Part shown: positions 3,544-58,987 of the stretch, piece by piece
How positions within the stretch are numbered: the first letter of the stretch is position 1
Layout of the letters: the number at the start of each line of letters is the position of its first letter
DNA from: a bacterium
Lineage (GTDB): Bacteria; Patescibacteriota; UBA1384; CAILIB01
Assembly (NCBI GenBank): GCA_037131105.1
Contig: JBAXRQ010000001.1
Coordinates: forward strand, 194,039-258,038
Reading direction: 5' to 3'
Length of the DNA: 64,000 bases
The notes under the pieces: model-generated
What the model saw: only the letters and a program-made list of their open reading frames with translations
What the model was told of the DNA's origin: nothing
The model's database searches: none
Translations under genes and position numbers: made by a program

Positions 3544-4944
3544 TTACCCGACACTGCCTGACATCTGGAGTTCAATCAAGCGGTTCATCTCCACCGCGTA
3601 CTCCATGGGCAGCTCCTTCACGATGGGTTCGATGAACCCGTTGACGATAAGTCCGGCCGCTTCCGCCTCGGAAAGCCCGCGGGACCTCAGGTAGAAGAGC
3701 TGCTCCTCGCCCAGCCGTGAGACCGTGGCCTCATGCTCGATCTTTACATCCCGCTGGTTGATGTCCATGGTCGGATAGGTGTCGGAGCGGGAGGCCTCGT
3801 CCAGGATCAGGGCATCGCAGGTTACCTTAGAAAAAGCTCCAGTAGCCTTTTTATTTGTTTTTACCAGCCCCCGGTAGGAGGTGCGGCCACCCCCGTGGGA
3901 GACCGATTTTGACGTGATGACCGAGGAGGTATTCGGCGCCAGGTGGACGGCCTTGGCGCCCGCGTCCTGGTGCTGGTTGGGTCCGGCCAAGGCTAATGAC
4001 AATATCTCGGCCCGGGCGCCTTCCCCTATCATAAAGACACTCGGATACTTCATGGTGACCCGGGAACCCAGGTTGCAGTCCACCCATTCCATGGTGGCGT
4101 TTTTGTGGGCGATCGCCCGCTTGGTGACCAGGTTGTAGACATTGTCCGACCAGTTCTGGATGGTACTGTAGCGGACCCGGGCGCCCGGCATGACGATGAC
4201 CTCGACCACAGCTGAGTGCAGGGAGTCGCTAGAATAGGTCGGGGCCGAGCAGCCTTCCACATAGTGCACGTAGGAGCCTTCCTCGGCGATGATTAGGGTC
4301 CGTTCGAACTGGCCGGCGTTCCTGGCATTGATCCGGAAGTAGGCCTGCAGGGGCACGTCGATATGCACCCCCTTGGGGACGTAGACATAGCTGCCGCCGC
4401 TCCAGACCGCGGTATTTAAGGCGGCGAACTTGTTGTCATGGGCGGGGATGACGGTGCCGAAGTGGGTTTTGATGATTTCCTCGTGCTCGCGCAGGGCAGT
4501 ATCGGTGTCCAGAAATACCACACCTTGGTCCTTCCACTTCTGCTGGAGGTTGTGGTAGATGACCTCGCTCTCATACTGGGCGCCCACTCCAGCCAGGAAC
4601 TTCTTCTCAGCCTCGGGCACACCCAGCTTGTCGAAGGTGTTTTTGATGGTATCGGAGACGTCATCCCAGGTACGAGACGGACGATCCTGTGACCTCATGA
4701 AGTAGGTCATCTCGTTGAAGTCGAGTCCGAACAGATCAGCTCCCCAGGTGGGAAGCGGCTTCTCAAGGAAAATCTCGTAGGCCTCCAGGCGCTTTTCCAG
4801 CATCCACAACGGCTCTTTCTTAAAGGCCGAGATAGCCCGCACCGTCTCCTCGGAAAGGCCCTTGGGAGTACGGGTCAGGTATTCCTCCGGGTCGGAGAAG
4901 CCATATGTATAGGGGCTGGCCTTGTAGTCAGTTGGGCTAGCCAT
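3544..4944 (-). CDS. sufB: Fe-S cluster assembly protein SufB
   Basis: Strong family resemblance along the full length; C-terminal FYLRSRGLSEAEA; start trimmed to the internal ATG at 4944 (MASPTDYKASPYTYGF) because the longer ORF overlaps the upstream gene. Confidence 0.9.
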   Translation of the reverse strand: MASPTDYKASPYTYGFSDPEEYLTRTPKGLSEETVRAISAFKKEPLWMLEKRLEAYEIFLEKPLPTWGADLFGLDFNEMTYFMRSQDRPSRTWDDVSDTIKNTFDKLGVPEAEKKFLAGVGAQYESEVIYHNLQQKWKDQGVVFLDTDTALREHEEIIKTHFGTVIPAHDNKFAALNTAVWSGGSYVYVPKGVHIDVPLQAYFRINARNAGQFERTLIIAEEGSYVHYVEGCSAPTYSSDSLHSAVVEVIVMPGARVRYSTIQNWSDNVYNLVTKRAIAHKNATMEWVDCNLGSRVTMKYPSVFMIGEGARAEILSLALAGPNQHQDAGAKAVHLAPNTSSVITSKSVSHGGGRTSYRGLVKTNKKATGAFSKVTCDALILDEASRSDTYPTMDINQRDVKIEHEATVSRLGEEQLFYLRSRGLSEAEAAGLIVNGFIEPIVKELPMEYAVEMNRLIELQMSGSVG

Positions 4945-10541: not shown

Positions 10542-12046
10542 TGAAGCCCCTGGCCCTTATCGTCCTGGACGGCTGGGGATACCGGGAGGAAGCCACCCAC
10601 AATGCCGTGGCCACTGCCAGCACCCCTGTCTTTGACAGAGTCTGGAAGGAGAACCCGCACACCCTACTGGAGGCCAGCGGGGAGCAGGTGGGACTTCCTG
10701 AGGGCCAGATAGGAAATAGTGAGATAGGCCATACCACTATCGGGGCTGGGAAGGTAATGGCCACCGACCTGGTGCGCATCACCAAGGCCGGTAAGAACGG
10801 TGAGTTCACCAGTAATCCGGTCTTTACCGAGCTGTTCGACCATGTGAAGTCCTACGGCACCGTGCTGCACGTGCTGGGACAGGTGAGTGCCGGAGGCGTG
10901 CATAGCCACCAGGATCACCTGTTCTATTTCCTGCGCGCTGCCAAGGAAGCGGGTGTCCAGAAGATAGCCATCCATGCCTATACTGACGGCCGCGACGTGC
11001 CGCCAAAGAGCGGGGCCGGCTACATGAAGGAGCTGGAGGCGCTGCTTGCTGAGCTGGGTATCGGCCATATTGCCACGGTCACCGGTCGCTACTATGCTAT
11101 GGACCGGGACAATAACTGGCACCGGCTGGCTAAGGCAGAGGCGGCTATGTTTGAGCACGCTGCTCCCACTTACTTGCAAAAGCCTTCGGCCGCTATGGAA
11201 GATGCCTATGGCCGCGGCAAGGTGGATGAGCACCTGGAGCCCATGGTGTTTGCCGACGAGAAGGGTAACTATTATCCTATCGCCAAGGATGACGCCGTCT
11301 TTGTCTTTAATTACCGTTCCGACCGGGTGCGTATGCTTACCCGTCGGCTTCTCGAGCGAGGTGCCGACCTCGGCCTGCTGATCGCCACCATGACCGAGTA
11401 TCATCCTGACTTCCAGGTGAAAGTCGCCTTCCCTCCGACTACCATCGAGACTACCCTGGGCGCCGAGGTGGCCAGAGCCGGGCTTACCCAGGCCCATATT
11501 GCCGAGACCGAGAAGTTTCCCCACGCTACCTACTTTTTAAATGGTGGCAAGCAGGAGCCCCATGAGGGCGAGGAGCATGTCATGCTGGACAGCCGCAAGG
11601 ACGTGGCTACCCATGACGAGGCGCCGGAGATGCGGGCCGAGGCCATCGCCGATGCTGCCGTAGACAGGCTGCAGAAGGGGGCCGACTTCATCTTTATTAA
11701 CTTTGCCAATCCTGACATGGTGGGCCATACCGCCAACGTCCCGGCCATCGTTACTGCTCTTGAAACGGTGGACCGTGAGCTTGCCAAGGTTCTGGCCGAG
11801 ATCAAGAACCAGGGTGGCGTAGCCCTGGTGACCGCTGATCATGGCAATGCCGAAATCAACATAGATCCGATGACCGGAGAGCGACATACCGCTCATACCC
11901 TGAGCCTGGTGCCGTTCATCGTAGTGGGCGCCGAGGTCAAACTGCGGGAGCTGGGTGGCCTTTCAGATATCGCCCCTACTGCCCTTGAGCTGCTGGGTAT
12001 CCAGAAGCCATCTTCAATGACCGGGGAGAGCCTTATTGTGAAATAG
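10541..12046 (+). CDS. gpmI: 2,3-bisphosphoglycerate-independent phosphoglycerate mutase
   Basis: N-terminal LIVLDGWG, metal-binding ADHGN; about 500 aa iPGM architecture. Confidence 0.9.
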
Positions 12047-13082: not shown

Positions 13083-14114
13083 CTACTTGTATCCGTTCGT
13101 AGCCTCTTGGTAGGTAGTCTTGGAGATCTCCTGGATGGCCTTCTCAGCATTGGCCAGACTGCCGGTGCTTCGGGTCATGACACAGAGCAGGTAGCGCTTG
13201 TTTGGCGCATAGACGATACCGCAGTCTTGCAGCTCGCGTGCAGTCACCTTGCCGCCCTCGGTTTTGGTGTCGATACCGAACTTGTGAGCGACCTGGGTAC
13301 CGGCCGGCAGTCCCTTAGCCAGTCCGTCTGTAAAATCAACCTCGCCAAGTAGCTCCATGGCCTTCTCGGAGAGATCCCTGTCGATGTATGTTGCATTTAC
13401 AAGGACGCGTAGGAAATAGGAAAAGTCCTTAGCAGTCATATAGTCCTCAGGTTGACTGGAGTCCTCGCGTAGAGGCACCTTCAGATCCCTGAAGGCTTGC
13501 TGGAAGAGGGTGGGATCGACGTAGCTGGCCAGGGCGTAGAAGGCGTTATTGTCCGAGTACTTGATCATCTTCTCGATGGCCTCCTCCACCGTGTAGGTCT
13601 GGCCGACCTGGAGGCGTACTTTGGGCTGGATCTCAATACCGGCGTTGGTATCGCTGGAGCTATTCACGGTAATTTGGTGCTGGAGGACCGAAGGATCCTT
13701 CTCGGCCATCTTGTAGGCGGCGATCATGGTAGGGATCTTGTTCAAGCTTGCCGGGTAGTACTTCTGGTCGGGGTTGATGTTCGTGGTGGCGTTGACGCTG
13801 AAGTCGCGGAAGTAGATTGATGCTGAGTCAATGTCATGGCTGGCTACTTTGCTCGCTATGAGGTTGTTGAGCTTATTTTGGAGGGGCGCCAGGATAGGAG
13901 AGGCGTCCACGGTATTGTTGTCACAGAGAAGCAGCGGGTTTATATAGGTATAACCGCCAAGGCGGAGACACTGGTAGCCGATGATCTGGGGTGGGGCGGG
14001 CGCAGCCAGGGCGCCGTGCAGCCACCAGCCGCCGCCTAAGGCGAGCAGGATAAGAACTAGGGAAAGCAGAGAGGCTGTAAGGCTGCGAAAGATGCGTTTG
14101 GAAAAGGATTTCAT
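13083..14114 (-). CDS. class-A beta-lactamase-like serine hydrolase, secreted/membrane-anchored
   Basis: N-terminal TM; SxxK-type motif PASLNKIPT; length and layout consistent with PenP-like fold. Confidence 0.45.
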   Translation of the reverse strand: MKSFSKRIFRSLTASLLSLVLILLALGGGWWLHGALAAPAPPQIIGYQCLRLGGYTYINPLLLCDNNTVDASPILAPLQNKLNNLIASKVASHDIDSASIYFRDFSVNATTNINPDQKYYPASLNKIPTMIAAYKMAEKDPSVLQHQITVNSSSDTNAGIEIQPKVRLQVGQTYTVEEAIEKMIKYSDNNAFYALASYVDPTLFQQAFRDLKVPLREDSSQPEDYMTAKDFSYFLRVLVNATYIDRDLSEKAMELLGEVDFTDGLAKGLPAGTQVAHKFGIDTKTEGGKVTARELQDCGIVYAPNKRYLLCVMTRSTGSLANAEKAIQEISKTTYQEATNGYK

Positions 14115-14262
14115 GGCTCTAGTATAGAGGAATTAAGGGACAACAACTATGTTTAGGAGTGACCGGGAGTTCCGCTCCCATATATCTTTGGAGTCGCTAC
14201 ACGGCTTTCCGGACTTCGCCGGAAGCGCCAGCGAACCGCGGTTTCGAACCCGCACGATCCAA

Positions 14263-14303
14263 CCAGAGAAAAAGACCCATACAAGATGGGTCTTTTTCTC
14301 TGG
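14263..14303. terminator. 18-bp perfect hairpin (ccagagaaaaagacccat acaag atgggtctttttctctgg)
   Basis: Perfect inverted repeat with internal A/T runs; sits between divergent genes next to a 12-nt copy of the tRNA-Asp 3' end. Confidence 0.5.
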
Positions 14304-14391
14304 CGGGAGCGATGGGTCGATTTCCGAACTTCGTGTAATGTTGTTTCATACTTTGCTGATGGAGATATATACTTAGCTCATAATTAATATT

Positions 14392-15468
14392 ATGACTATG
14401 TTTTGCACTGAATGTGGTTGTGAACTCCGACATAAGGGGAAGTTTTGTCCAGAATGTGGTCACTTGGTTACTAAGGGGGGCGAAGGCCTATCGGCCTGTC
14501 ACATTAATCCGGAGACTAATCCCTTGAAACGTCAAATGAAGAGCAAATATCGCCAACCATGGCTTATTGCAGGTTGCTGTCTTATATCGATCGGGATAAT
14601 TTCAGGAGTAGTGTACATCTTCTATCAGAAAGGTTTTGGAAGTCGGAATAATGAGGCCAATATAACGAATCGGGCACGTTTAGATAGCCTGGAGGCAATG
14701 CTCCAGGACGGCGACAGTCTCGTTTCTATTTGGAACGATACTGCAGATAGGGCAAACGAAGACCGACTTCATGAGCAATCCATAATTGCTGATTTTAAAT
14801 CAAAGTCGCAAGATCAAGTCGAACCTGTGAAGTCGTTGTCGGCAAATTGGCTTTTCGAAGCCGCAGAAATACAGAATACTGCACCATGTGATTGTTTTGG
14901 TCCGTCTGTTACGGCGAGCAAAAGCGAGATTCAAGACGGACACAAAGCATTGAACAGAATTAAAGTAATCGATTCTCAACTTGCTATCCAGCATTCGCTC
15001 CTAAAAGGAGGAGCAGTTCCTTCTAATGAGCAGGTAACATCCGATCTTAAGTCTGATGCTAAGAATATTCAAACGAACTTCATAATTGAAGCCGTCATAT
15101 CAGATGCCTGGCAGCATAACAAGAATCACTCTTTTATTGGGGAGTGGGTTTCGTTAGCTCCGGCTGGGAAGGATCAAGTTGACTGGGCATCGATGGGACT
15201 GAATGCTAATGGGACAGATGTTGTTGGCAACTCTGGTGCGGATCTGGGGGCGTCGTTAAACGCCTCACAGTCTTACGAGAAATCTATTCTCGATCTCGGG
15301 AGGCTTACACAGGTTGCGGGTGGCTCTGTTCGGGATCTGACGAATAAAGTACTTGAGCAGTCCCTGATATTGTGGGATCACTCAGTTACTAATACGCTCT
15401 ACGGAGACGTTCTTGGCGTTTTCTCTAAACTTCAAGAGTTAGTCCTTGAGATTTCTGCCTTGAGCTAA
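14392..15468 (+). CDS. zinc-ribbon (CxxC...CxxC) single-pass membrane protein with extracytoplasmic domain
   Basis: N-terminal MTMFCTECGCELRHKGKFCPECGH, then a TM segment (WLIAGCCLISIGIISGVVYIF); AT-richer than its neighbours. Confidence 0.5.
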   Translation: MTMFCTECGCELRHKGKFCPECGHLVTKGGEGLSACHINPETNPLKRQMKSKYRQPWLIAGCCLISIGIISGVVYIFYQKGFGSRNNEANITNRARLDSLEAMLQDGDSLVSIWNDTADRANEDRLHEQSIIADFKSKSQDQVEPVKSLSANWLFEAAEIQNTAPCDCFGPSVTASKSEIQDGHKALNRIKVIDSQLAIQHSLLKGGAVPSNEQVTSDLKSDAKNIQTNFIIEAVISDAWQHNKNHSFIGEWVSLAPAGKDQVDWASMGLNANGTDVVGNSGADLGASLNASQSYEKSILDLGRLTQVAGGSVRDLTNKVLEQSLILWDHSVTNTLYGDVLGVFSKLQELVLEISALS

Positions 15469-15505
15469 AGTCTTTAGTGCCTTTTGGTGCGAAGGGTACG
15501 GGAAG

Positions 15506-16426
15506 TCAATGTACGGGACTAATTAAGGCAGCAGTATTATTGCGAGGATTCCCCACCTGTTCCGACACTGGATATGACTCCATGCTCTTCGCCTCATAGG
15601 GTATGAGCAATGATTGGAGGTGGGCTAGCGGCGCTTCAGGGTCCAGCCACACTGCCTCGTCCTTCCGATGAAGGATGACCGGCATCCGGTCGTGCACCTC
15701 AGCGGCCAGAGGGTTCGGCGCCGTCGTGATAATGGTATACGTCTGCAGCTCCTTACCTTCCTTGTTATGCCATTCCGCCGTGAGCCCCGCCAGGGCGAAG
15801 TACTCCTCTTCTCGCAGCCTGAAGTAATACGGCTGCTTGCCTGAGCCAACCTTCTTCCACTCGTAGTAGCCCGTGATGGGTACCAGGCACCGGCGCTTCT
15901 CGAACGACTTTTTGAAGGAGTTCTTCTCGTGCACCGTCTCAGCCCGGGCGTTTATCATCTTGTAGCCTATCTTCTCGTCTGACGCCCACACGGGGACGAG
16001 CCCCCACTTCATGAGCTCGAGGCGGTTGGGGCTGTTCTCCTCCATCGTCCTCACCTTCAGTATGGGTGTGCCGGTGAAGTCGATGACCGCCTCGTCGATG
16101 CTCTTGGGGGTCACGTCGGGGCTGTAGTCTCGGTAGATGCGGCAGAAGCGCTTGTGCACCTCACGGTAGAGGTTTGGATCGGGCGGGATGATGGCGATGT
16201 CGGGGGCGAGCATGCGGGCCTCGCGCACGTTGACGGCGGTCTTTATCCCCGCCTGCTTGGCCTCGTAGCTGGGGCTCACCACGCAGCCCCCGGGCCCCGT
16301 GTAGGCCGCAACGCCCACCGGCTTCCCCCTCAGAAGCGGCCAGGCCTGCTGCTCGGCACGCGCGAATGAGGCGTTCATGTCGATGTGCATGATCGTTGCG
16401 GGGTTGCGGTTAATCGGCAAGTCCAT
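15506..16426 (-). CDS. in-frame chimera: Y-family DNA polymerase N-terminal palm fragment fused to an SRAP (YedK/HMCES) C-terminal domain
   Basis: Residues ~1-125 carry IMHIDMNASFARAEQ and SIDEAVIDFTG, matching the DinB/UmuC catalytic motifs; residues ~135-306 (KWGLVPVWASD...INARAETV...RRCLVPITGYYEWKK...IHDRMPVIL...VSEQVGNPRNNTAALISPV) match SRAP; the SRAP N-terminal Cys2 nucleophile region and the polymerase fingers/thumb/little-finger are absent. Confidence 0.6.
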   Translation of the reverse strand: MDLPINRNPATIMHIDMNASFARAEQQAWPLLRGKPVGVAAYTGPGGCVVSPSYEAKQAGIKTAVNVREARMLAPDIAIIPPDPNLYREVHKRFCRIYRDYSPDVTPKSIDEAVIDFTGTPILKVRTMEENSPNRLELMKWGLVPVWASDEKIGYKMINARAETVHEKNSFKKSFEKRRCLVPITGYYEWKKVGSGKQPYYFRLREEEYFALAGLTAEWHNKEGKELQTYTIITTAPNPLAAEVHDRMPVILHRKDEAVWLDPEAPLAHLQSLLIPYEAKSMESYPVSEQVGNPRNNTAALISPVH

Positions 16427-16679
16427 CGGAGGCCTCGATTAGCGTTGCGTGCAGGGTGTCGCCGTCCACGTGGATGCGCATGTCCAGGGCGCCGACGTTG
16501 ACGCAGAAGACGTGCACCTGCTTGCGGCCGTCCCGCACGGTGTAGGCCATGCCGGTCTCCCGCACCAGGTAGTCCCGGCCCTGCCAGCGCACGCACAGCA
16601 GGGACGCGCGCTGAGCGACGGAGTCGATGTCGACGCGCACCTTCACCGCCTCGTTGATGGGTGTCCTCATGCTAGGCAC
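16410..16679 (-). CDS. small hypothetical protein upstream of the polymerase/SRAP chimera (possible UmuD/YolD-type accessory)
   Basis: 89-aa ORF overlapping the downstream start by 17 nt; GC-rich patch; function speculative. Confidence 0.25.
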   Translation of the reverse strand: MPSMRTPINEAVKVRVDIDSVAQRASLLCVRWQGRDYLVRETGMAYTVRDGRKQVHVFCVNVGALDMRIHVDGDTLHATLIEASDGLAD

Positions 16680-16769
16680 TATACACCAAACATATACCGA
16701 ACAGTCAAGGCAACAACCGACAGTCTAGAGGTCTCAGGTTCTAATTGAAACAAATTGGGAGGTCGATCG

Positions 16770-17093
16770 TCACGGTGTTTGGAGGGCGTCAGGATTGTAA
16801 GCGCACATTGTGTTTGCTATTGGAGCTGCGTTCCCCGTCCCTCTAGTATAGTCGTTGACGCGTCTGGGTACGCCATCAGAATACCTCCAGACTAGTGTTA
16901 CGAAGGCGGCCTCTCCTCTTAAGGCTCTCTCTAGCACCATGCTAACTAGAAGTTCCTTGTTGGTCTTCTCTTGTCCGGCAGGAATCTTTTCCAAGCATTG
17001 CCTCATGAGGTCTGCCATGGATTGGCCTTTTCTGGGTCTGCCGTTTGGGTTCCGTGTTTCCCCCTTGAGCATCGTTGTGGAGTTGCGGGGCAT
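16770..17093 (-). CDS. phage/plasmid-associated small protein (RNPNGRPRKG motif, DUF5681-like)
   Basis: N-terminal GETRNPNGRPRKG motif common in phage small proteins. Confidence 0.35.
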   Translation of the reverse strand: MPRNSTTMLKGETRNPNGRPRKGQSMADLMRQCLEKIPAGQEKTNKELLVSMVLERALRGEAAFVTLVWRYSDGVPRRVNDYTRGTGNAAPIANTMCAYNPDALQTP

Positions 17094-17189
17094 AGGCCTG
17101 TTAATTGCCTGTTTTTATAATCGCAATATACCCCTAAGTGGCCTCTGCATCCATCGGAGGACCTGGAGTTGGCAGCTTGTGAAGCAGAA

Positions 17190-18245
17190 TCACTTAGGAT
17201 TATTTGGATAAGCCACGCTCCTGATATAGTTCGAGCTCAGGGCATACCCGGTTCCTTCAGCGGGCACGTATGCGCTGCTCCACACCAGCTTCTCGGTATT
17301 CATGCCGACGACTCCACAAGCACTGACCAGCGGGCCACCTGAGTTCCCGGGGTTGATAGTTGCATCTGTCTGTAGCAGTTCACGACCGCTGTCTGTTACC
17401 CTTCGCGATAAGATCCCCTTGGTAATTGTAGCTTCGCCAGATGGGGAGTTAGGCCAACCTACGGTATAGACAGTCTCAGCATCCTTCAGCATATCTGAAT
17501 TGGAGAGCGACATGGTGAAATGGAATGAGTAGTCTACCTTGAGTATGGCTATGTCCTGGTCGGGGTAGGCTGCATAGACGGAAGCGTCCATATCCTTATT
17601 CCCGTCATAACCTATCCATACCCTAATAGTCTTAACTCCCTGGATCACATGGTAATTTGTTAGGACTAGGCCAGGGGTTGAGTCGGTCAGTGCCATACCC
17701 GATCCTGAGCCAATCAAGTTACCCCGGCTATCATAGTCTCTGACAAGATGGGCCGCCGCCTTAGCAGCATGGAGAGTGGCTTGCTCGTCGCACCCTGTTG
17801 GCATTGAGGATGCAACAACTGGAGAGGACGTGTAGCCGCCTATACTATTATTATAATTAGCTGTGGCAATAGCTTTCATGACTGACAAAACCAATACGAT
17901 AGCGAATATCCATATTGCTTTCCGTACTCGAGGGCTCATTCTTCTGATTCTCTTGTGGCAGTATCTGCAAACACGGGCATCCGCTTTTATCTTCTCGGCA
18001 CAGTGTGGGCAGATCTTGTGGCCAGGCTTGGGAGATAGGCTCCTCTCTCTGCCCTCTTTCTCAAGACGCTCGTATGCAGTGAAGAAATCCTCTTCTACCG
18101 GATGGTCTTGTTGCTTCGGTGGTATTCCTTCGTTTGTTTTCATCGTGTGAGATGTTTCCGTCAGGGGTAAGCCGAGGTTGTTCCATTTCTTCGTTATTGG
18201 GTAGCGGGTGGAAATACCCTCAAGAATACAATAAAGGCCAAGCAC
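17190..18245 (-). CDS. membrane-anchored trypsin-like (S1/HtrA-type) serine protease with N-terminal zinc ribbon
   Basis: CPHCAEK...CRYCHK zinc ribbon; TM; TNYHVIQG (His), D, and GNSGGPL (Ser) catalytic triad motifs. Confidence 0.6.
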   Translation of the reverse strand: MLGLYCILEGISTRYPITKKWNNLGLPLTETSHTMKTNEGIPPKQQDHPVEEDFFTAYERLEKEGRERSLSPKPGHKICPHCAEKIKADARVCRYCHKRIRRMSPRVRKAIWIFAIVLVLSVMKAIATANYNNSIGGYTSSPVVASSMPTGCDEQATLHAAKAAAHLVRDYDSRGNLIGSGSGMALTDSTPGLVLTNYHVIQGVKTIRVWIGYDGNKDMDASVYAAYPDQDIAILKVDYSFHFTMSLSNSDMLKDAETVYTVGWPNSPSGEATITKGILSRRVTDSGRELLQTDATINPGNSGGPLVSACGVVGMNTEKLVWSSAYVPAEGTGYALSSNYIRSVAYPNNPK

Positions 18246-18437
18246 CTAGGTTGCTTGGACCAACAGATGGCTTGCGCCTACTGCTTTTGGTGCTTGACCT
18301 GTTACCAGGCGCAAGCACCCCTTTGAAGGGAAGCTGTGATGTAAGCCAAACTGTTGATCCAAGCCACTAAATCATAGCCCGTTTAACCTTGAAATACAAC
18401 AAAAGCACCGGACGGCTGACGGAGTTCTAACTCGGTT

Positions 18438-18809
18438 CTATTTGATCCAGCCGAGGGCTTTGAAGGTAAGCTCTAGGTATTTAAGTCGTACCCGCTGGTC
18501 GGGTACTACTTCTACTGCGTACTTGCCGCGCACTTTCTCCCAGCCGTGGTCTGTCTTTCGGAAGATGGGTCTTATCTCTAGCTTGGTCGCCTCGAGGCCA
18601 TTACCTAGGCCCCAAACTTGGGACCGCGGCCCTAGGGCCTTGTGGAGCAAGTAGCTTACTCCAGGTTGGGCATGGATGGCACGACCTGGATTCCTGGCAG
18701 TGCTTGGGCTGTACCCTGCAAGACGGGCGGCGAGGCCCTTAGAATATCCTTCCGCAAGGAGCTGCGCATATCTATAAGCACGTGGGCTGGGTCTCTTGAG
18801 TATGGGCAT
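18438..18809 (-). CDS. small HTH protein, phage terminase-small-subunit-like
   Basis: N-terminal AQLLAEGYSKGLAARLAGYSPSTARNPGR HTH-like segment. Confidence 0.3.
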   Translation of the reverse strand: MPILKRPSPRAYRYAQLLAEGYSKGLAARLAGYSPSTARNPGRAIHAQPGVSYLLHKALGPRSQVWGLGNGLEATKLEIRPIFRKTDHGWEKVRGKYAVEVVPDQRVRLKYLELTFKALGWIK

Positions 18810-18935
18810 AACGGCAGTATTATAGCAGACCTAGGAAGTAACCTATCAGTAGTTTGCTCAGATAAGAATTTGAGAACAACACGTGGCGCTTGCTTTGGGA
18901 TCCTGCTATCCTCCAATCATAAGACTGACACGACT

Positions 18936-20102
18936 ATGACAATGAATGATAATGAACTTCTAGGTCATTTCCTTGAGAATGCCTTGGTGGCGAAGAAAGA
19001 CAGCCATTTATTTTTGGCTGTATCTGATTATGTGAACTACGTAGATTCCTCTGAGAGGTGGTCGGCAATAATGGTTGAGAAAGTGCTCTCTGAGCGAAGG
19101 GATCTTGAAAGTCGCCTCAGCGAGCTCGGTGCAGAAGTGATAGCGGAATCTGAACGATGCTTTGATGCAGTATCTGCAAAGCTGATTTCGCATGGCATAA
19201 AGGTGGACGGGGAGCTGACGTCAAGACTGGATGCATATCGCAACATTCTTTCAGGCTCATACCAGAGTTCAGAACCATATCCGAAATCTGTTTACGGTTC
19301 CGTCGGCCGTCTTCTTAGCGAGCTAAAGGATAGGGGACATGGAGATTTATTTGCCGACAGTATTTCGACAGATGACAAGACTACAAATTATGTCTGGACA
19401 TTCTCCAAGAAGTACAGAGAATACGAGGAGCTGCTTCAAGTCTTTGAACGAAGGCGACGTGACAGCGCATGGGGGTCTTGGGAGACCCTTGGCCATGTAT
19501 TCCACACAATTGCCCTTCGGGATCAGATTACTAAGAAACTCAGTCAACACGGCTATGAGTGGACGTTCATGAACTACTTATATATGGCCAGCGCGATGGA
19601 CAAGATTCTGGATTCGGGATCAGCTCTTGGGCAAACCGTATTCGATAGAGAAAGCACAGAATGGTCCCTTAGAAGGATCCACGCTCGGTTACTCTTGGCT
19701 GACGGTGGGGGCGTTACGGAATCTCAAAGCTCTCAAGTCGGTACTGATAATTCTGAATCTATAGGCCTAATGCCTAGTTATCAGGTGGGACCGTTAATTC
19801 TTGATCTGGAAAAGGGTCAACTAGTGGTACGGGGTCAGAAACCCTTAGACGTATCTACCAAGAGCCGCCCGATGATCATGTTGCGCTTGTTAATGCAGAA
19901 ACCGGGCGTCGTTGTTTCGCATTCCGAAATAGTTGACGCTTCCTCAAAAGAGGGCTCAGCCGCGAACAATGACGATATAGACGCAAACAAGCTTAGAGTA
20001 CAAATTGATTATCTCCTCATACGTGCTGGAATGGACAAACAGAAAGCAAAAGAGCTGATTAGGTCGGAGCGGGGAAAGGGGTATAAGATTTACCCCAACT
20101 AG
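18936..20102 (+). CDS. hypothetical protein with C-terminal OmpR/PhoB-type winged-helix DNA-binding domain
   Basis: C-terminal KSRPMIMLRLLMQKPGVVVSHSEIV...KLRVQIDYLLIR...RGKGYKIYPN matches the trans_reg_C pattern; start set to the ATG at 18936 to avoid overlap; AT-rich. Confidence 0.45.
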   Translation: MTMNDNELLGHFLENALVAKKDSHLFLAVSDYVNYVDSSERWSAIMVEKVLSERRDLESRLSELGAEVIAESERCFDAVSAKLISHGIKVDGELTSRLDAYRNILSGSYQSSEPYPKSVYGSVGRLLSELKDRGHGDLFADSISTDDKTTNYVWTFSKKYREYEELLQVFERRRRDSAWGSWETLGHVFHTIALRDQITKKLSQHGYEWTFMNYLYMASAMDKILDSGSALGQTVFDRESTEWSLRRIHARLLLADGGGVTESQSSQVGTDNSESIGLMPSYQVGPLILDLEKGQLVVRGQKPLDVSTKSRPMIMLRLLMQKPGVVVSHSEIVDASSKEGSAANNDDIDANKLRVQIDYLLIRAGMDKQKAKELIRSERGKGYKIYPN

Positions 20103-20220
20103 TCCGTCTTTAAAGGCAGGCTGTATTCTTCCATGATATTTCCGGAACTTTTCCGGATCTTTTTTTGAATGGTTTTGAGGCTCCCAGTGTAGTTATATTG
20201 AGGCAACAAAGCCTGACCTA

Positions 20221-20466
20221 ATGACTATTACCATGGATCCTTTTAGAACGAGCAACCTGCCTCTAGCTACCTGCCTTAGCCTTTATTACCCAGTAAGCAC
20301 AATAGACAGATCTGAACCTCGCGCCGTCTTCTACTTTGAGCGTGGAGAAGGCATGGATGACCTTGTCCAGATGTTTCACGCGCGGACTATGGCTGTTGAG
20401 CCGCAGGCCTATGCCGACGCGATGAGATCGCTTAAAGCCCGCCTGTATGCAAGGGAGGACCCTTGA
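20221..20466 (+). CDS. hypothetical small protein
   Basis: ORF only. Confidence 0.25.
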   Translation: MTITMDPFRTSNLPLATCLSLYYPVSTIDRSEPRAVFYFERGEGMDDLVQMFHARTMAVEPQAYADAMRSLKARLYAREDP

Positions 20467-20626
20467 TCTCCAAAGATGCGGCCTTACAGCTCAAGGTAAT
20501 TCTTGAGGAGGACTTTGATATAGCAGTGACATTGGAAGAGGCAACTTCTCTGGCAACTCTGTGGATCGGATATTTCGACCTTCTTAAGAGTAGCGGGGAA
20601 TCTACCGGTTCGTAACAGCATAAGGT

Positions 20627-20938
20627 ATGAATATGACCATAAATCGCAGCAAGAAGGGCGGAGGTACTAGGACGGATAAGCAAGGGCGGAAAGCTGGAAA
20701 GTTCAGAATCCTTATCAGTTGGGTCGGGGAAAGTGGCGTTCCTGAGCGCAGGCAGACCGACAATATTTCCAAAGCCCAGAATTGTCTAAGGGGCATAAGG
20801 AGAGGGCCAATAAAGGTGGCGTGCTCTTTCGTGAGTGCAGATAATACTGGGGTGTTTCCGACCAGGGAGTCTGCGCGTCATTTCCTTCAGAACAACTGGC
20901 AGGATTATCAGATATGGAGGAAGGATGGTGATGATTGA
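20627..20938 (+). CDS. hypothetical small basic protein
   Basis: ORF only. Confidence 0.25.
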   Translation: MNMTINRSKKGGGTRTDKQGRKAGKFRILISWVGESGVPERRQTDNISKAQNCLRGIRRGPIKVACSFVSADNTGVFPTRESARHFLQNNWQDYQIWRKDGDD

Positions 20939-21254
20939 TCCTGCAAAGTGCGAGATCGAGCTACGTCCAAAGGATGGGCAGGGCGCTCTTTTGGCCCTGG
21001 TATCCTTTACCCAGGACGGAACAAAGCTACGGGGATTCAGACTCAAGGACGGACCTTACGGCCTTTGGTTGGAAGAGCCAAAGATTAGGACCGGCAAGGG
21101 CTGGATCTCCATATACTTTGATGAGGACAAGGCCCGGTTCAAGGCCCTCCAAGATGCTGTTGTCGCACAGTACCAGAGGCAGAATATCGGCAGAGAAGGA
21201 ATGACGCTCAGTGAACTTGAGGAGGTGGAGAAGATCATGGAACAGCCATTCTAA
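20925..21254 (+). CDS. hypothetical protein
   Basis: ATG at 20925 preceded by GGAGGAAGG RBS. Confidence 0.4.
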   Translation: MVMIDPAKCEIELRPKDGQGALLALVSFTQDGTKLRGFRLKDGPYGLWLEEPKIRTGKGWISIYFDEDKARFKALQDAVVAQYQRQNIGREGMTLSELEEVEKIMEQPF

Positions 21255-21267
21255 GTGCCAGATCACA

Positions 21268-21313
21268 CCATATAGTAACTGTTACTATATGGTAACCGTA
21301 AATATATGGTTAC
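21268..21313. repeat. two adjacent perfect palindromes (ccatatagtaac-t-gttactatatgg; gtaacc-N10-ggttac) upstream of the recombinase gene
   Basis: Direct reading; 12-bp arms. Confidence 0.7.
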
Positions 21314-21410
21314 AGTGACCCTTCCTTTTAACAAGTGACTATGGGTGGTAAAGTTAGGGTGCTACCCAATCCGACAATACCAAGAGCTATTTGTTTGCTT
21401 GCTGCCTGAG

Positions 21411-21465
21411 AGGGCGGTTCAGCCAGAAAGCTATGCTCTTGCGTAGTCGGACTGGGTAGCCTGAA
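21411..21465. repeat. 12-bp inverted repeat agggcggttcag / ctgaaccgccct flanking a ~28-nt spacer, followed by TTTT (terminator or recombination site)
   Basis: Direct reading; 25 nt upstream of the recombinase start. Confidence 0.55.
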
Positions 21466-21489
21466 CCGCCCTTTTAGTAACCCTAAACT

Positions 21490-23061
21490 ATGAAAGCAGT
21501 GCTATTGTGTCGTGTCTCAAGCAGAGATCAGGAACTAAGCGGATACTCTCTTCCCGCTCAGGAGAAGCTCCTTTCTCAGTATGCAGAGAACAAGGGACTA
21601 AAGGTGGACAAGGTGTATGCAATATCGGAGTCGGCAAGTGGTAGCAGCACTAGAAAGACGTTCAATGAGATGATGTCCTATATCCAGAAGGAAAAGGTGG
21701 GGTGTATCATTGCCGAGAAAGTCGACCGACTGACCCGTGAACTTAAGACGGCGGTCGCAATGAATGAGTGGTTAGAGGGAGACGACGGGCGTCAGCTCCA
21801 TCTGGTTAAGGATTCCCTGATCCTCCACAAGAACTCCCGAAGCCAGGAGAAGTTAAACTGGGGACTTCGGGTTATTCTTGCTAAGAACTACACGGACAAC
21901 CTTTCGGAGGAAGTCAGAAAGGGCTGGCAGGAGAAGATATCGCAGGGCTGGTATCCGGGTCATGCAAAGTTCGGGTATCGGTCTGTGGATGAGGGCCGAC
22001 GCAAGGTTATCGAGGTGGACCCGGTAACGGCACAGTGGGTGGTTAAGATGTTCGAAGCATATGGAAGCGGAGAGTACTCGCTTAAGTCCCTTGAGCAGAA
22101 GCTGTTTGCAGAGGGCCTCAGAACGATGCGTGGCAAGAAGGTCTCTGACACCAATATCAGGACCTATCTATCTGACAAATTCTACATCGGGAAGTTTGAC
22201 TGGTGTGGAGTCACGTACGAAGGCAAGCACCGTCCGATCATCAGTAGGAGTACGTTTGAGTTTGTCCAGGCCCGACTTGCGGGAAAGAAGCCGCCGAAGC
22301 ACTCCAAGCACGAGCACCTGTTTGGCGGGACATTCATGTGCGGATATTGCCAGGGCACCATAAGCTGGGAGGCACACAAAGGATTCAAATACGGTCACTG
22401 CAACCATCACAGGGAGTGCCCCTCAAAGAAGTGGGCTCGTGAGGACGAGGTGGACGAGGTTGTTGCTACTATATTTGGCAGGCTAGTTGTTTCAAGCCCT
22501 AGGCTCCAAGCCTGGCTAAGCAGGTCCTTAAAGGAGGTGCATAGGGAGGACGAGGATACACGTACCTCAGATCTAGTAATTCTCAACAAGCGACACGACC
22601 AAGTCTGCGCCATGATCGACAGGCTTTATGACGACAAGTTAGAAGGGCTTATTGACCGTGATATGTATGATAGAAAGTTCAAGCAGCTTGCAGAAGAGAA
22701 AGAAGGGCTGGCAAGCTCGATTCACGAGAAGTCCACGATGGGAACAGAGGCCACTGCACGAGCCGCAGAAGTATTCGATATCTTCCAGCAGGGTGAGCTG
22801 ATATATCGCAAGTCAAACGTGGCTACGAAACGAAAGATGGTACGTACTGTGTTTGAGGTCCTGGAGATCAGGGATAAGCAGGTCTCAGTAAGGTTTCGTC
22901 CTGAGTTTGAGGTACTTGCTAAGGCCGTGCTGCACACCAATGGTTCGAAGGTGGAGGATTTAGAGCCGTGTAGGGATAATATTTTCGAACTTGATAAAGT
23001 AGGCTCCTATAAAAAAGAAATAGGCACACTAGTGCCTACTTACTCTTCTTGGCGGGAGTGA
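21490..23061 (+). CDS. large serine recombinase (resolvase N-domain + recombinase domain + zinc-ribbon + coiled coil)
   Basis: N-terminal ...CRVSSRDQ catalytic Ser region; central recombinase domain; C4 zinc ribbon FMCGYCQGT...YGHCNHH; stop overlaps the tRNA-Asp 3' end. Confidence 0.85.
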   Translation: MKAVLLCRVSSRDQELSGYSLPAQEKLLSQYAENKGLKVDKVYAISESASGSSTRKTFNEMMSYIQKEKVGCIIAEKVDRLTRELKTAVAMNEWLEGDDGRQLHLVKDSLILHKNSRSQEKLNWGLRVILAKNYTDNLSEEVRKGWQEKISQGWYPGHAKFGYRSVDEGRRKVIEVDPVTAQWVVKMFEAYGSGEYSLKSLEQKLFAEGLRTMRGKKVSDTNIRTYLSDKFYIGKFDWCGVTYEGKHRPIISRSTFEFVQARLAGKKPPKHSKHEHLFGGTFMCGYCQGTISWEAHKGFKYGHCNHHRECPSKKWAREDEVDEVVATIFGRLVVSSPRLQAWLSRSLKEVHREDEDTRTSDLVILNKRHDQVCAMIDRLYDDKLEGLIDRDMYDRKFKQLAEEKEGLASSIHEKSTMGTEATARAAEVFDIFQQGELIYRKSNVATKRKMVRTVFEVLEIRDKQVSVRFRPEFEVLAKAVLHTNGSKVEDLEPCRDNIFELDKVGSYKKEIGTLVPTYSSWRE

Positions 23062-23126
23062 CCGGGTTCGAACCGGCGACCTCCACAGTGACAGTGTGGC
23101 GCTCTAACCAGCTGAGCTACACCCCC
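23050..23126 (-). tRNA. tRNA-Asp (anticodon GTC)
   Basis: Hand-folded cloverleaf: acceptor GGGGGTG/CACTCCC, D-arm GCTCAGCTGGTTAGAGC, anticodon loop CTGTCAC, T-arm GCCGGTTCGAACCCGGT, encoded CCA. Confidence 0.8.
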
Positions 23127-23195: not shown

Positions 23196-24113
23196 CTACG
23201 ACCCCACATAGGTTCGGATGTGGCCGTCCTTGTGCAGCTTGGCTAGGTAGTCGTCTAGACTAAGATCTACGCTTCCCGTCCGCTTGGTGATCAGGAGTAG
23301 GTGCCAGCCCAGCTTGCTGCGCACCGGGTCGGACACCTGTCCCACCGGTAGGCTAAAGATTGCTTTCTCAAAGTCGGCTGAGAATGTCGTGCTGACATCC
23401 CCGCGGGTAGTGGTGCCTAGGTTACCACCCTTGTCTCGTGAGGCGGTATCCTCTGAGTGCTGCTTGACTGCGTCTCCAAAGCTGGCGGCATCGCTTATCT
23501 TTGAGCGTACGTCGCTGGCACGGGCTTTGGCGGCATTGACGTCAGCTTCAGAAGCTCCAGCTGGAACTGCAATGAGCAGGTGCTTTACATCTGCCTGTAC
23601 CAGGAGCTGCTTCTCGACGGCAGATTCGGCCAGGTATTCGCGTGTCAGTAGGCGGAAGTCGGCTAGATCCATCTGGTCGCCATACTGGTCAGTAAGAAAC
23701 TTTTCAAGATTAGCCTGTCCGCCGATCTGTTTGTACACGTTGTTAAGAGAAGTGTCGACATCAGAATCGGTGATGACGATGGTATGTGAAGTCAGGGCCT
23801 GTTGGTAAAGCTGGCCGTTGACCAGGCGCTCCATGACGCTTTTCTGGATAGCGGCATCAGTGGTATTCAGTTTGTTCTTTGCGACCAGATTCTTGCGGGC
23901 TGCCACTTCCTTGCGGTAACGCGACAGCGGGATCATGGTGCCGTTCACGTAGCCAGCTGGGTACGGAAAGATCCGCTCTATTGTAGTAGTCCACCGGTTG
24001 GTGGCATGGTAATGGCATATAGCCACGGCGGTACCTCCTATGGTTAGGAAGTAGAGGCAGCTCAAGGCGACGGCGATGATCCCTCCTTGGACCAGGATCC
24101 GGCGGGCGTACAT
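23196..24113 (-). CDS. parvulin-type peptidyl-prolyl isomerase (PrsA/SurA-like foldase), membrane-anchored
   Basis: N-terminal TM; PpiC domain motifs VKHLLIAV...GGNLG...GWHLL. Confidence 0.6.
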   Translation of the reverse strand: MYARRILVQGGIIAVALSCLYFLTIGGTAVAICHYHATNRWTTTIERIFPYPAGYVNGTMIPLSRYRKEVAARKNLVAKNKLNTTDAAIQKSVMERLVNGQLYQQALTSHTIVITDSDVDTSLNNVYKQIGGQANLEKFLTDQYGDQMDLADFRLLTREYLAESAVEKQLLVQADVKHLLIAVPAGASEADVNAAKARASDVRSKISDAASFGDAVKQHSEDTASRDKGGNLGTTTRGDVSTTFSADFEKAIFSLPVGQVSDPVRSKLGWHLLLITKRTGSVDLSLDDYLAKLHKDGHIRTYVGS

Positions 24114-31385: not shown

Positions 31386-31690
31386 TACGCGGAAGCTGGG
31401 GGAGTCGAACATCGTCCGCTTCCCGCTTCGGGTTGGAAACCCGCTTCGCCGCTTTCTCGTCTGCAGCGCTCCGCTTGCTTACGCGAGAAGCGCGAACGCT
31501 GGCGGACTCTCAGGAAACCCTCGGTTTCCTTGACGTTTGCTGCGCAAGCTACCTTCCGCCGCGGAGAAACTCCTGTTTCGGAAGACCTTCGCTGGTGCGG
31601 GACACGCACGGTGGAGCCACTCAGGTCCTAGCCGGTCCTTCCGGACCGCCGTCGCCTTCCGACGTTCAAATCCGCCCAGCGGCTCCAAAG
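31386..31690 (-). ncRNA. GC-rich structured non-coding RNA candidate (tmRNA or RNase P RNA; identity unresolved)
   Basis: About 300-nt gap between terminators with no credible ORF and many nested inverted repeats. The minus-strand frame ends ...PAFALLA-TAA, which is tag-peptide-like. Segments resemble the RNase P CR-I/CR-IV motifs (GGAAGGACCGGCU; GUGCG...CGCACCAGCG). Adjacent to tRNA-Thr. Confidence 0.3.
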
Positions 31691-31740
31691 AAAAGAACCC
31701 ACTAAAGTGGGTTCTTTTCTTTGGAGCCGCTGGGCGGAGT
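31664..31740. repeat. 33-bp perfect inverted repeat tccgcccagcggctccaaagaaaagaacccact / agtgggttcttttctttggagccgctgggcgga
   Basis: Right arm includes the 3' 17 nt of tRNA-Thr; left arm is an inverted copy of that tRNA 3' end preceded by a T-loop-like GTTCAAATCC. Confidence 0.8.
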
Positions 31741-58625: not shown

Positions 58626-58876
58626 CTACGACTCGCCCTACAATACAGAAAATAGACTGATCTGTACAGCGTCCGGGGGAGTCTCACGTCGCTCCGCTCC
58701 TCGGAACCCCACGGGTTCCGACGCTCACTTCGCTCGTTGCCTCCTTCCACGGGGAAACTCCCGTTTCTCACTGTCCGCCTTCGGCGGACAAGCAGGTATG
58801 CACATGGTAGAAGCAGTATCCCCCGGATACTGCTTATCCCTCCCCCTTCACTGTTCGATTCCCACCACTCTTCAGG

Positions 58877-58915
58877 CCAGAAAAATAGACACCCAGTGGG
58901 TGTCTATTTTTCTGG
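58877..58915. terminator. 18-bp perfect hairpin ccagaaaaatagacaccc agt gggtgtctatttttctgg abutting the tRNA-Lys 3' end
   Basis: Direct reading; right arm ends in the encoded CCA of tRNA-Lys. Confidence 0.6.
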
Positions 58916-58987
58916 TGGGTCCGGTGGGAATCGAACCCACAACCAATGGCTTAAGAGGCCACTGCTCTACCGTTGAGCTACAGACCC
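58913..58987 (-). tRNA. tRNA-Lys (anticodon CTT)
   Basis: Hand-folded: acceptor GGGTCTG/CGGACCC, D-arm GCTCAACGGTAGAGC, anticodon loop CTCTTAA, T-arm GTGGGTTCGATTCCCAC, CCA encoded. Confidence 0.8.

Follow-up and report, generated by a model that had tools for sequence, protein, structure and literature searches.

Several described systems bear on the locus reported here. The 2014 Islander paper stated that serine integrases were not known to target tRNA genes (PMC4383910), and a later description of tRNA-targeting serine integrases was not found in the literature searched, the coverage of which was incomplete. The SSV-type "suicidal" integrases of archaeal viruses and plasmids, which are tyrosine recombinases described as found only in archaea, carry the att site within the integrase gene, and this gene is split into inactive parts on integration (PMC8371274). 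In mycobacteriophage BPs and its relatives, attP lies in the 3' coding end of the repressor gene, and integration by a tyrosine integrase truncates the repressor C-terminus, a functional switch that has been demonstrated (PMC4557955). Here we describe an island in a 64,000-nucleotide stretch of contig JBAXRQ010000001.1 (referred to below as the window), which belongs to a Berkelbacteria-like chromosome of the Patescibacteria, or candidate phyla radiation (CPR). Very probably, this island (approximately bp 14310-23049) is an 8.7-kb integrative element whose own large serine recombinase (LSR) inserted it at the very 3' end of a tRNA-Asp gene. Its features are listed in Table 1.

The right end of the island is marked by an overlap of two genes. 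The open reading frame (ORF) of the LSR ends in TCT TCT TGG CGG GAG TGA (protein end SSWRE*), and its final 12 nt, corresponding to the last four codons with the stop included, are the reverse complement of tRNA-Asp ...TCACTCCCGCCA. The TGA stop codon (bp 23059-23061) is provided by the tRNA sequence; a preliminary description of this DNA had placed the recombinase stop within the 3' end of tRNA-Asp, and both the ORF end and the ARAGORN and Rfam calls confirm this. The tRNA gene is intact and, like the other four tRNA genes of the window, encodes CCA. Its last 9 nt (CTCCCGCCA on the tRNA strand, TGGCGGGAG on the strand of the recombinase, where they encode the residues W-R-E) recur exactly at the far end of the island, and if one mismatch is allowed, bp 23050-23061 and bp 14301-14312 are identical at 11 of 12 positions. 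Directly 3' of tRNA-Asp, a hairpin and T-run borne by the element lie antisense to the last codons of the recombinase, and this hairpin is likely a replacement terminator for the tRNA. Many members of the recombinase family have a similar hairpin at the same position, with a mean minimum free energy of -13.6 kcal/mol vs -7.7 kcal/mol in control segments. Only this difference in energy is usable, as a simple hairpin detector was too permissive (18/41 test and 16/41 control segments).

At the left end, the copy at bp 14301-14309 matches the tRNA-Asp end exactly over 9 nt, at 11 of 12 nt and at 13 of 17 nt, and the score of its local alignment to the tRNA 3' end was equalled in 1 of 2000 shuffles. 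Base pairs 14301-14312 are identical to the final 12 nt of the tRNA-Asp gene at a Berkelbacteria locus (L007). The island thus has an intact tRNA gene with an adjoining integrase gene at one end and a displaced 3' tRNA fragment in direct orientation at the other. On the tRNA strand, this fragment is directly followed by a hairpin with a perfect 18-bp stem (bp 14263-14280 and 14286-14303) that starts with CCA. A CCA-containing hairpin of this design also lies directly behind the intact tRNA-Asp gene of two island-free loci, L005 and L007. L007 has TCGCTCCCGCCA and the stem AAAAAGAC...GTCTTTTT in common with the hairpin of the window, while in L005 the tRNA, the hairpin, a trailer module and a partial tRNA copy run contiguously in that order. 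Because the hairpins of L005 and L007 share this design and position, the hairpin at bp 14263-14303 is interpreted as the native trailer of tRNA-Asp, moved by the insertion. The order of a PpiC gene followed by tRNA-Asp is conserved in L005 (PpiC 54% identical), L006 and L007, and no recombinase is found there.

The sequence beyond the left core continues the recombinase gene. When the core at bp 23050-23058 is joined to the sequence beyond bp 14301-14309, the LSR ORF runs on in frame for a further 25 codons. This continuation reads CGA TGG GTC GAT TTC CGA ACT ... (RWVDFRT...), i.e. RWVDFRTSCNVVSYFADGDIYLAHN*, and the composite full-length LSR is a protein of 548 aa ending in ...SSWRE-RWVDFRTSCNVVSYFADGDIYLAHN. 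In the circular form, its stop codon would be 4 nt before the ATG of the zinc-ribbon membrane protein gene. The W-x-[DE]-F-R-T motif of the tail occurs at the same offset in homologues P0001, P0005, P0009 and L049, and the BLASTP alignment of the composite LSR with P0005 crosses the junction, extending up to residue 530. As the continuation matches the tails of homologues from contigs with element genes on both sides, attP very probably lies within the last part of the LSR coding sequence, and the LSR tail would be exchanged at integration. The att site is thus found within the integrase ORF, as in known att-in-integrase modules. The SSV-type split of the integrase into non-functional parts and tyrosine chemistry are not seen here; the 25 C-terminal residues that are lost lie past the last conserved block.

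Relatives of this recombinase are numerous, with matches at E ≤ 1e-10 to more than 1000 proteins and related genes at more than 500 JGI metagenome loci. A survey was made of 80 related JGI loci (L048-L127), 64 of which have a resolved stop codon. At 42 of these 64 loci, the LSR stop lies within an antisense tRNA gene, with an overlap of 13-63 nt. The tRNAs are those for Asn (23 loci), Gln (eight), Ser (three), Asp and Tyr (two each) and Arg, Val, His and Trp (one each); six further loci have a T-loop-like motif. Alignment with 34 homologues revealed C-termini of two kinds. The first is ...RPxWLPR(E/Q/L)DSNLxP (e.g. WLPREDSNLEP) or a short stub such as WLRG*, both being translated antisense tRNA: TGG is the antisense reading of CCA and GAT TCG AAC that of the T-loop. 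The second is ...W-R-x-x-W-x-[DE]-F-R-T-..., extending for 25-35 residues. In the long-tail homologues, element genes are found on both sides of the recombinase (helix-turn-helix (HTH) repressors, Phage_rep_O and TraG/TrwB coupling proteins), and this gene order is that of an unintegrated attP. Two near-identical pairs, L084/L085 and L053/L052, are the same up to the tRNA 3' end, after which one member continues into the tRNA and the other into unrelated sequence. Judged from these sister sequences, the crossover may take place at or very near the CCA end.

Other properties of the relatives were recorded. The P0009 contigs (L163-L166), which have the unintegrated form, are approximately 23 kb in length and encode a cI/Cro-like HTH pair, Phage_rep_O, two TraG/TrwB-type coupling proteins, a 983-aa M23 peptidase and a NosD/beta-helix protein; they have the appearance of plasmid-like CPR elements that are conjugative or mobilisable. 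Many of the JGI contigs in the survey end approximately 15-110 nt past the recombinase stop or within its last codons, which is consistent with assembly graphs that branch at polymorphic integrated, empty and circular junctions. In four loci (L069, ~4575-4690; L096, ~4587-4700; L171, ~11575-11690; L170, ~11600-11700), the recombinase tail runs into a tRNA 3' half (T-arm, acceptor and CCA) that ARAGORN does not call. Their upstream parts have a common GATAGTCCA motif and extra sequence, and these may be intron-containing or unusual CPR tRNAs or tRNA fragments. Antisense-tRNA tails (GMKRLELP, GVEPTS and RDSNPR) were also observed in distant serine recombinases (28-37% identity) of 35-57-kb IMG/VR viral contigs (L128, L132, L139-L142, L146, L148 and L150), with an ARAGORN-confirmed overlap at two loci, one with tRNA-Leu and one with tRNA-Asp. 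Because of these tails, the habit reaches beyond the Patescibacteria clade.

The following series of events is proposed. In the free circular form, attP would occupy the last part of the LSR gene, with the zinc-ribbon membrane protein gene next to it. This site would recombine with the tRNA-Asp 3' end inside the 9-bp core, and the tRNA-Asp sequence would stay unchanged on integration. The native hairpin terminator of the tRNA would be moved 8.7 kb away, its place being taken by the element-borne hairpin, while the LSR would shed its last 25 residues and stop at a codon supplied by the tRNA. The junction anatomy, the continuity of the ORF over the reconstructed attP, the LSR/tRNA overlap throughout the family and the divergence of sister loci at the tRNA end are observed directly; that the island's own LSR catalysed the integration is what we infer. 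The truncated polymerase/SRAP fusion described below and the lack of replication and transfer genes in the island suggest that the element is reduced and possibly immobile.

Several results weigh against this interpretation. First, variation at the locus itself is lacking: the three assemblies that contain it (ENA ERZ27300165 k141_264546, Logan SRR7053528 and ENA ERZ27300174) are 100% identical and all carry the island. Second, an excised form was not found, the composite 548-aa protein being absent from 15 billion proteins and the 22-mer of the attP junction from the IMG/VR viral contigs. Third, a close empty site was not found among PpiC homologues, whose identity does not exceed 54% once the same strain is set aside. 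The nearest relatives without the island are remote, with PpiC identities of 54% and 40%, and different genes follow their trailer. Fourth, the integrated relatives L170 and L171 have no repeat of the tRNA end of ≥ 9 nt within 10 kb upstream and no target tRNA called by ARAGORN. This indicates that a 9-bp core is not a general feature; attL was reconstructed at a single locus, that of the window. Fifth, no obvious dyad symmetry was seen by eye around the core in the reconstructed attP and attB. Finally, the conserved DFRT motif of the tail may reflect a P half-site in the DNA and not a function of the protein: the tail is not conserved past FRT, and GATTTCCGAAC, read as DNA, is similar to the T-loop sequence GATTCGAAC apart from two additional bases.

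Of the genomes that lack the segment, with which the preliminary description had advised a comparison, L005 and L007, though distant, have a native-type trailer and no island; a close empty site was not found. The closest GTDB species genomes are two Candidatus Berkelbacteria, with PpiC proteins 40-41% identical to that of the window. Homologues of the hydrolase on the left flank are at most 49% identical and lie in unrelated contexts, and no empty site was found through them. The recombinase protein is also present on a 949-kb contig of an NCBI metagenome-assembled genome. An apparently truncated recombinase variant in L002 (ENA ERZ27300174 k141_407172) was rejected: the last 36 nt of this public contig (bp 1960-1995) are a Nextera adapter (CTGTCTCTTATACACATCTCCGAGCCC), which interrupts the recombinase gene as an artefact of assembly.

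A further match to the tRNA end has to be accounted for before the alternatives are weighed. The 12-mer GGAGTGACCGGG, which the preliminary description had noted at bp 14156 and 23055, does occur exactly twice in the window, and its distal copy is at the far end of an older host trailer module of approximately 145 nt. The perfect 18-bp hairpin said to be right next to it is real but approximately 95 nt away, and the chance expectation of less than 0.01 holds for a pre-specified 12-mer, whereas approximately 0.11 matches are expected in the window for any 12-mer of the last 40 nt of the tRNA. Exact repeats of 12-15 nt with no relation to a tRNA are common in the 13-kb region. In L005 and L007, equivalent partial direct copies are found 95-120 nt past the terminator, each matching its own tRNA-Asp; scores as high were reached by 0 of 2000 shuffles for L005 and 8 of 2000 for L007. 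From these copies at loci that have no island, the 12-mer is probably not a product of chance, yet independent of the island. Possible origins are an older att scar, a miniature element, palindrome growth or an undescribed RNA.

The trailer module was also examined as a possible RNA. Rfam matches in the window were limited to the five tRNAs, and neither the module nor L005 gave a credible one. The possibility that the module encodes a tmRNA or tRNA-like molecule on the plus strand was rejected, as its 5' and 3' ends are unpaired and ARAGORN made no call. Two other tRNA genes of the window, tRNA-Thr (bp 31671-31738, 3' end and trailer) and tRNA-Lys (bp 58850-58940, trailer), each have a CCA-containing terminator hairpin behind them, to which an inverted copy of the acceptor and T-arm of the same tRNA is immediately joined. 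The inverted copy of tRNA-Thr (TGGAGCCGCTGGGCGG) is part of a near-perfect palindrome of approximately 68 nt, and that of tRNA-Lys is GGTGGGAATCGAAC. Behind these copies are 70-220 nt taken up by GC-rich hairpins; the same layout is seen in the native trailer of tRNA-Asp and in L005, and none of it has a match in Rfam.

The best surviving alternative is that two nested or tandem events took place. The 12-mer would be the distal end of an older, almost fully decayed or miniature element resembling a cis-mobilizable element (CIME; bp 14168-14300), the 8.7-kb element would have entered the regenerated tRNA end later, and both repeats would be att scars. The two tRNA-like copies are indeed both direct and each is individually non-random, the module between them holds hairpins and an inverted tRNA-like piece instead of genes, and similar modules lie behind tRNA-Asp in L005 and L007. 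However, across lineages whose PpiC proteins are 40-54% identical, the copies co-vary with their own tRNA, which would call for selection or for separate events of similar size. The copy in the window also lacks the tRNA terminus, and no Rfam family matches the module. In addition, tRNA-Thr and tRNA-Lys are followed by inverted copies with no significant direct copies, which suggests a general trailer architecture and not scars. We regard nested events as possible but doubtful.

It is improbable that the segment is not, or is no longer, mobile, with a recombinase/tRNA overlap that is fixed and domesticated and a copy at bp 14301 that is a by-product of the palindromic trailer architecture. Such a view would fit the absence of island polymorphism among the three assemblies, the decayed look of the cargo (the truncated IMS/SRAP fusion and the lack of replication, transfer and structural genes) and the copies of tRNA ends in the trailers of other tRNAs of the window. 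A trailer by-product, however, would not give ORF continuity with a conserved tail over the junction. The recombinase furthermore keeps all of its invariant residues, dozens of relatives lie at different tRNA genes, near-identical elements occur both integrated and unintegrated, and the syntenic tRNA-Asp genes of L005 and L007 have no island.

We can give hardly any credence to the boundaries of the preliminary description, in which the island spans bp 14156-23066, the 12-mer is the att core and the hairpin and tRNA-like pieces of bp 14168-14310 are inside the element: although the match is exact, unique to its two sites, longer than the longest direct matches of the other four tRNAs (9-11 nt), reached in score by only 23 of 2000 shuffles of the 263-nt region searched and extended by GAA (by eye) if a 2-nt gap is allowed, a distal copy without the last 5 nt of the tRNA (CGCCA) is not what a displaced host fragment should look like where every tRNA of the window encodes CCA, neither flank is similar, chance matches are not negligible at the rate given above, partial copies of the own tRNA also lie behind the terminator in island-free L005 and L007, and the ORF continuation and the native-type terminator both indicate bp 14301-14309. 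What stands of that description is an element integrated at the 3' end of tRNA-Asp with a serine and not a tyrosine recombinase. The single insertion between the 9-bp cores remains the preferred interpretation in what follows.

Table 1. Features of the tRNA-Asp island, its junctions and its host flanks (window coordinates in bp)
Feature	Position	Strand	Remarks
Class-A beta-lactamase-like serine hydrolase	13083-14114	-	Left host flank
12-mer GGAGTGACCGGG, partial direct copy of tRNA-Asp 3' end	14156-14167		Second occurrence at 23055-23066
Inverted tRNA-Asp-3'-like piece (T-arm, acceptor, CCA-like)	14237-14265	+	In host trailer module; 72% complementary to 23050-23078; abuts native terminator
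Native tRNA-Asp trailer/terminator hairpin	14263-14303	-	Host DNA outside the island; 18-bp perfect stem including CCA/TGG
attL core TGGCGGGAG, displaced tRNA-Asp 3'-end copy with CCA	14301-14309		From alignment of the far end of the island to the tRNA and L005
Putative P arm of former attP, severed LSR 3' end (RWVDFRTSCNVVSYFADGDIYLAHN)	14310-14387	+	In frame with core; stop TAA at 14385-14387
Zinc-ribbon membrane protein, 358 aa	14392-15468	+	
Chimera of Y-family polymerase N-terminal fragment and SRAP, 306 aa	15506-16426	-	Pfam IMS positions 1-108 of 148; SRAP 41-214 of 214
DUF5681-like small protein	16770-17093	-	E = 1.7e-4, below Pfam cut-off
Zinc-ribbon/transmembrane trypsin-like (HtrA-type) protease	17190-18245	-	Pfam Trypsin_2, 5.9e-23; NCBIfam and PADLOC protease-domain matches
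476-aa protein with C-terminal OmpR-type winged helix	18672-20102	+	Pfam Trans_reg_C, 2.7e-7
DUF5659 protein, 81 aa	20221-20466	+	Pfam
Small ORF upstream of recombinase	20925-21254	+	Conserved in L061
LSR, 523 aa in integrated form	21490-23061	+	Pfam Resolvase and Recombinase; phrog_95 integrase, 3.4e-70
Element-borne hairpin and T-run directly 3' of tRNA-Asp	23018-23041	-	Terminator-like site, antisense to last LSR codons
attR core TGGCGGGAG (tRNA strand CTCCCGCCA)	23050-23058		Last 9 nt of tRNA-Asp; LSR codons W-R-E; identical to 14301-14309
tRNA-Asp (GTC), intact, CCA encoded; attB-bearing gene	23050-23126	-	ARAGORN; Rfam tRNA, 69.1 bits
PpiC/SurA-type rotamase	23196-24113	-	Right host flank; PpiC then tRNA-Asp kept in Berkelbacteria-like relatives
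Putative attP junction (reconstructed)			...CCTACTTACTCTTCT-TGGCGGGAG-CGATGGGTCGATTTCCGAACT...
Putative attB junction (reconstructed)			...ATGGGTCTTTTTCTC-TGGCGGGAG-TGACCGGGTTCGAACCGG...

The LSR has the domain order of a large serine recombinase, a class of enzymes that recombine short attP and attB sites by a 2-bp staggered crossover and depend on a directionality factor for excision. The catalytic domain (Pfam PF00239 Resolvase, E-value: 1.1e-18) covers residues 4-153 and is followed by the Recombinase domain (PF07508, E-value: 2.3e-13) at residues 178-265. Every invariant residue of a 35-sequence alignment is present, including R8, V9 and S10 and the four cysteines C284, C287, C304 and C310; PF13408, the four-cysteine zinc-ribbon domain that carries the coiled-coil motif, is annotated in many homologues, and the LSR of the window has no match to this family at E ≤ 0.01. 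The nearest solved structure is the catalytic domain of the TP901-1 integrase, which the LSR profile matches at 8.4e-10. Similarity to the NCBIfam families CcrB, XisF and CcrA is below the cut-offs of those families, and identity to the homologues listed is 48% at most. Between the small ORF and the start of the LSR gene are a perfect AT-rich palindrome of 13+13 nt (bp 21267-21293, ACCATATAGTAAC G GTTACTATATGGT) and, at bp 21406-21477, an inverted repeat whose 17-nt arms are 38 nt apart; both may be operator or terminator elements of the LSR promoter region. The preliminary description had regarded palindromes at bp 21268-21313 and 21411-21462 as attP-like; these are intergenic and upstream of the LSR gene, and nothing ties them to the junctions.

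Pfam and PHROGs searches bear out the gene content first described for the island. The mosaic GC content is likewise present, at 0.43-0.65 within the island (45-65% in the preliminary description) vs 0.53-0.59 in the flanks. The chimeric IMS/SRAP protein, which lies in a patch of GC content 0.57-0.65 while the rest of the island is mostly lower, is without the N-terminal part of the SRAP profile and without most of the polymerase, and it looks like a fusion generated by deletion. In the trypsin-like protein, the protease domain is similar to the protease portion of the PADLOC RT-Protease_XI models (E-value: 1e-15). A defence system was rejected as an explanation of the cargo, as this resemblance is limited to the protease domain and no reverse transcriptase is present nearby. 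By tblastn, relatives of the 476-aa winged-helix protein were found upstream of related recombinases in L052, L053 and L109. In the same way, a DUF5659 protein of approximately 80 aa was found to be encoded on the recombinase strand, 1-3 kb upstream of that gene, at 18 of the 80 JGI loci (L052, L053, L060, L062, L084-L086, L091, L093, L096, L099, L106, L107, L109, L113, L117, L123 and L126) and also in L171; by its position, the protein is a candidate partner of these integrases, either as an accessory or as a directionality factor. PHROGs identified no virion structural or packaging genes (capsid, portal, large terminase or tail) in the island, its matches being limited to the integrase, a weak small-terminase-like match and proteins of unknown function. 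Neither replication nor transfer genes were found in the island with Pfam and PHROGs, nor was a tyrosine recombinase (Phage_integrase domain); the serine recombinase is the sole recombinase.

Integration into tRNA genes has so far been treated as a trait of tyrosine integrases, while this locus and its relatives indicate that serine integrases do so routinely in CPR bacteria, the clade using at least nine tRNA isoacceptor families as targets. The design is compact, with the att site in the last codons of the enzyme and a probable replacement terminator hairpin on the opposite strand. A tRNA-based search for islands that relies on a tyrosine integrase or on long repeats would overlook such elements, and they bear on the mobilome of a branch of bacteria of which hardly any member has been cultured. 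A use in genome engineering is also possible, given that short sites are sufficient for serine integrases and that the 3' ends of tRNAs are strongly conserved. More speculatively, and with little confidence, these recombinases might constitute an undescribed, mostly Patescibacteria clade of serine integrases with attB at tRNA 3' ends and attP in their own 3' coding end, in which the exchange of a native tail of 25-35 aa for a tRNA-antisense stub acts as a built-in sensor of the integration state that alters activity or directionality. Should the exchange indeed alter activity, serine integrases would have a new means of sensing integration.

The feature is an element of a serine integrase whose own gene contains attP and whose target is a tRNA 3' end. 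It represents a large Patescibacteria clade and shares properties with several known systems. With the large serine recombinases of ϕC31, Bxb1, TP901-1, A118, CcrAB and XisF it shares a resolvase catalytic domain with its serine, a Recombinase domain and a putative Cys4 zinc-ribbon region, as well as a short junction identity (9 bp in this element). It differs from known serine integrases in targeting a tRNA 3' end, in having attP in its own 3' coding end and in the exchange of its last 25 residues. Like Islander-type tyrosine-integrase islands, it has an intact tRNA beside the integrase gene, a displaced direct 3' fragment at the far end and a preserved tRNA function. Here, in contrast, the enzyme is a serine recombinase, and just the final 9 nt of the tRNA are common to both junctions, such that essentially the trailer and terminator are exchanged and not the tRNA body. 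With SSV-type elements it has in common an att site in the integrase ORF, a compact int/att module and an int gene that is changed on integration, but it is bacterial, belongs to the serine superfamily and would lose only a 25-aa tail past the conserved domains. As in BPs, an attP in a 3' coding end leads to C-terminal truncation of a protein of the phage or element; in the window, in contrast to BPs, the affected gene is that of the recombinase itself.

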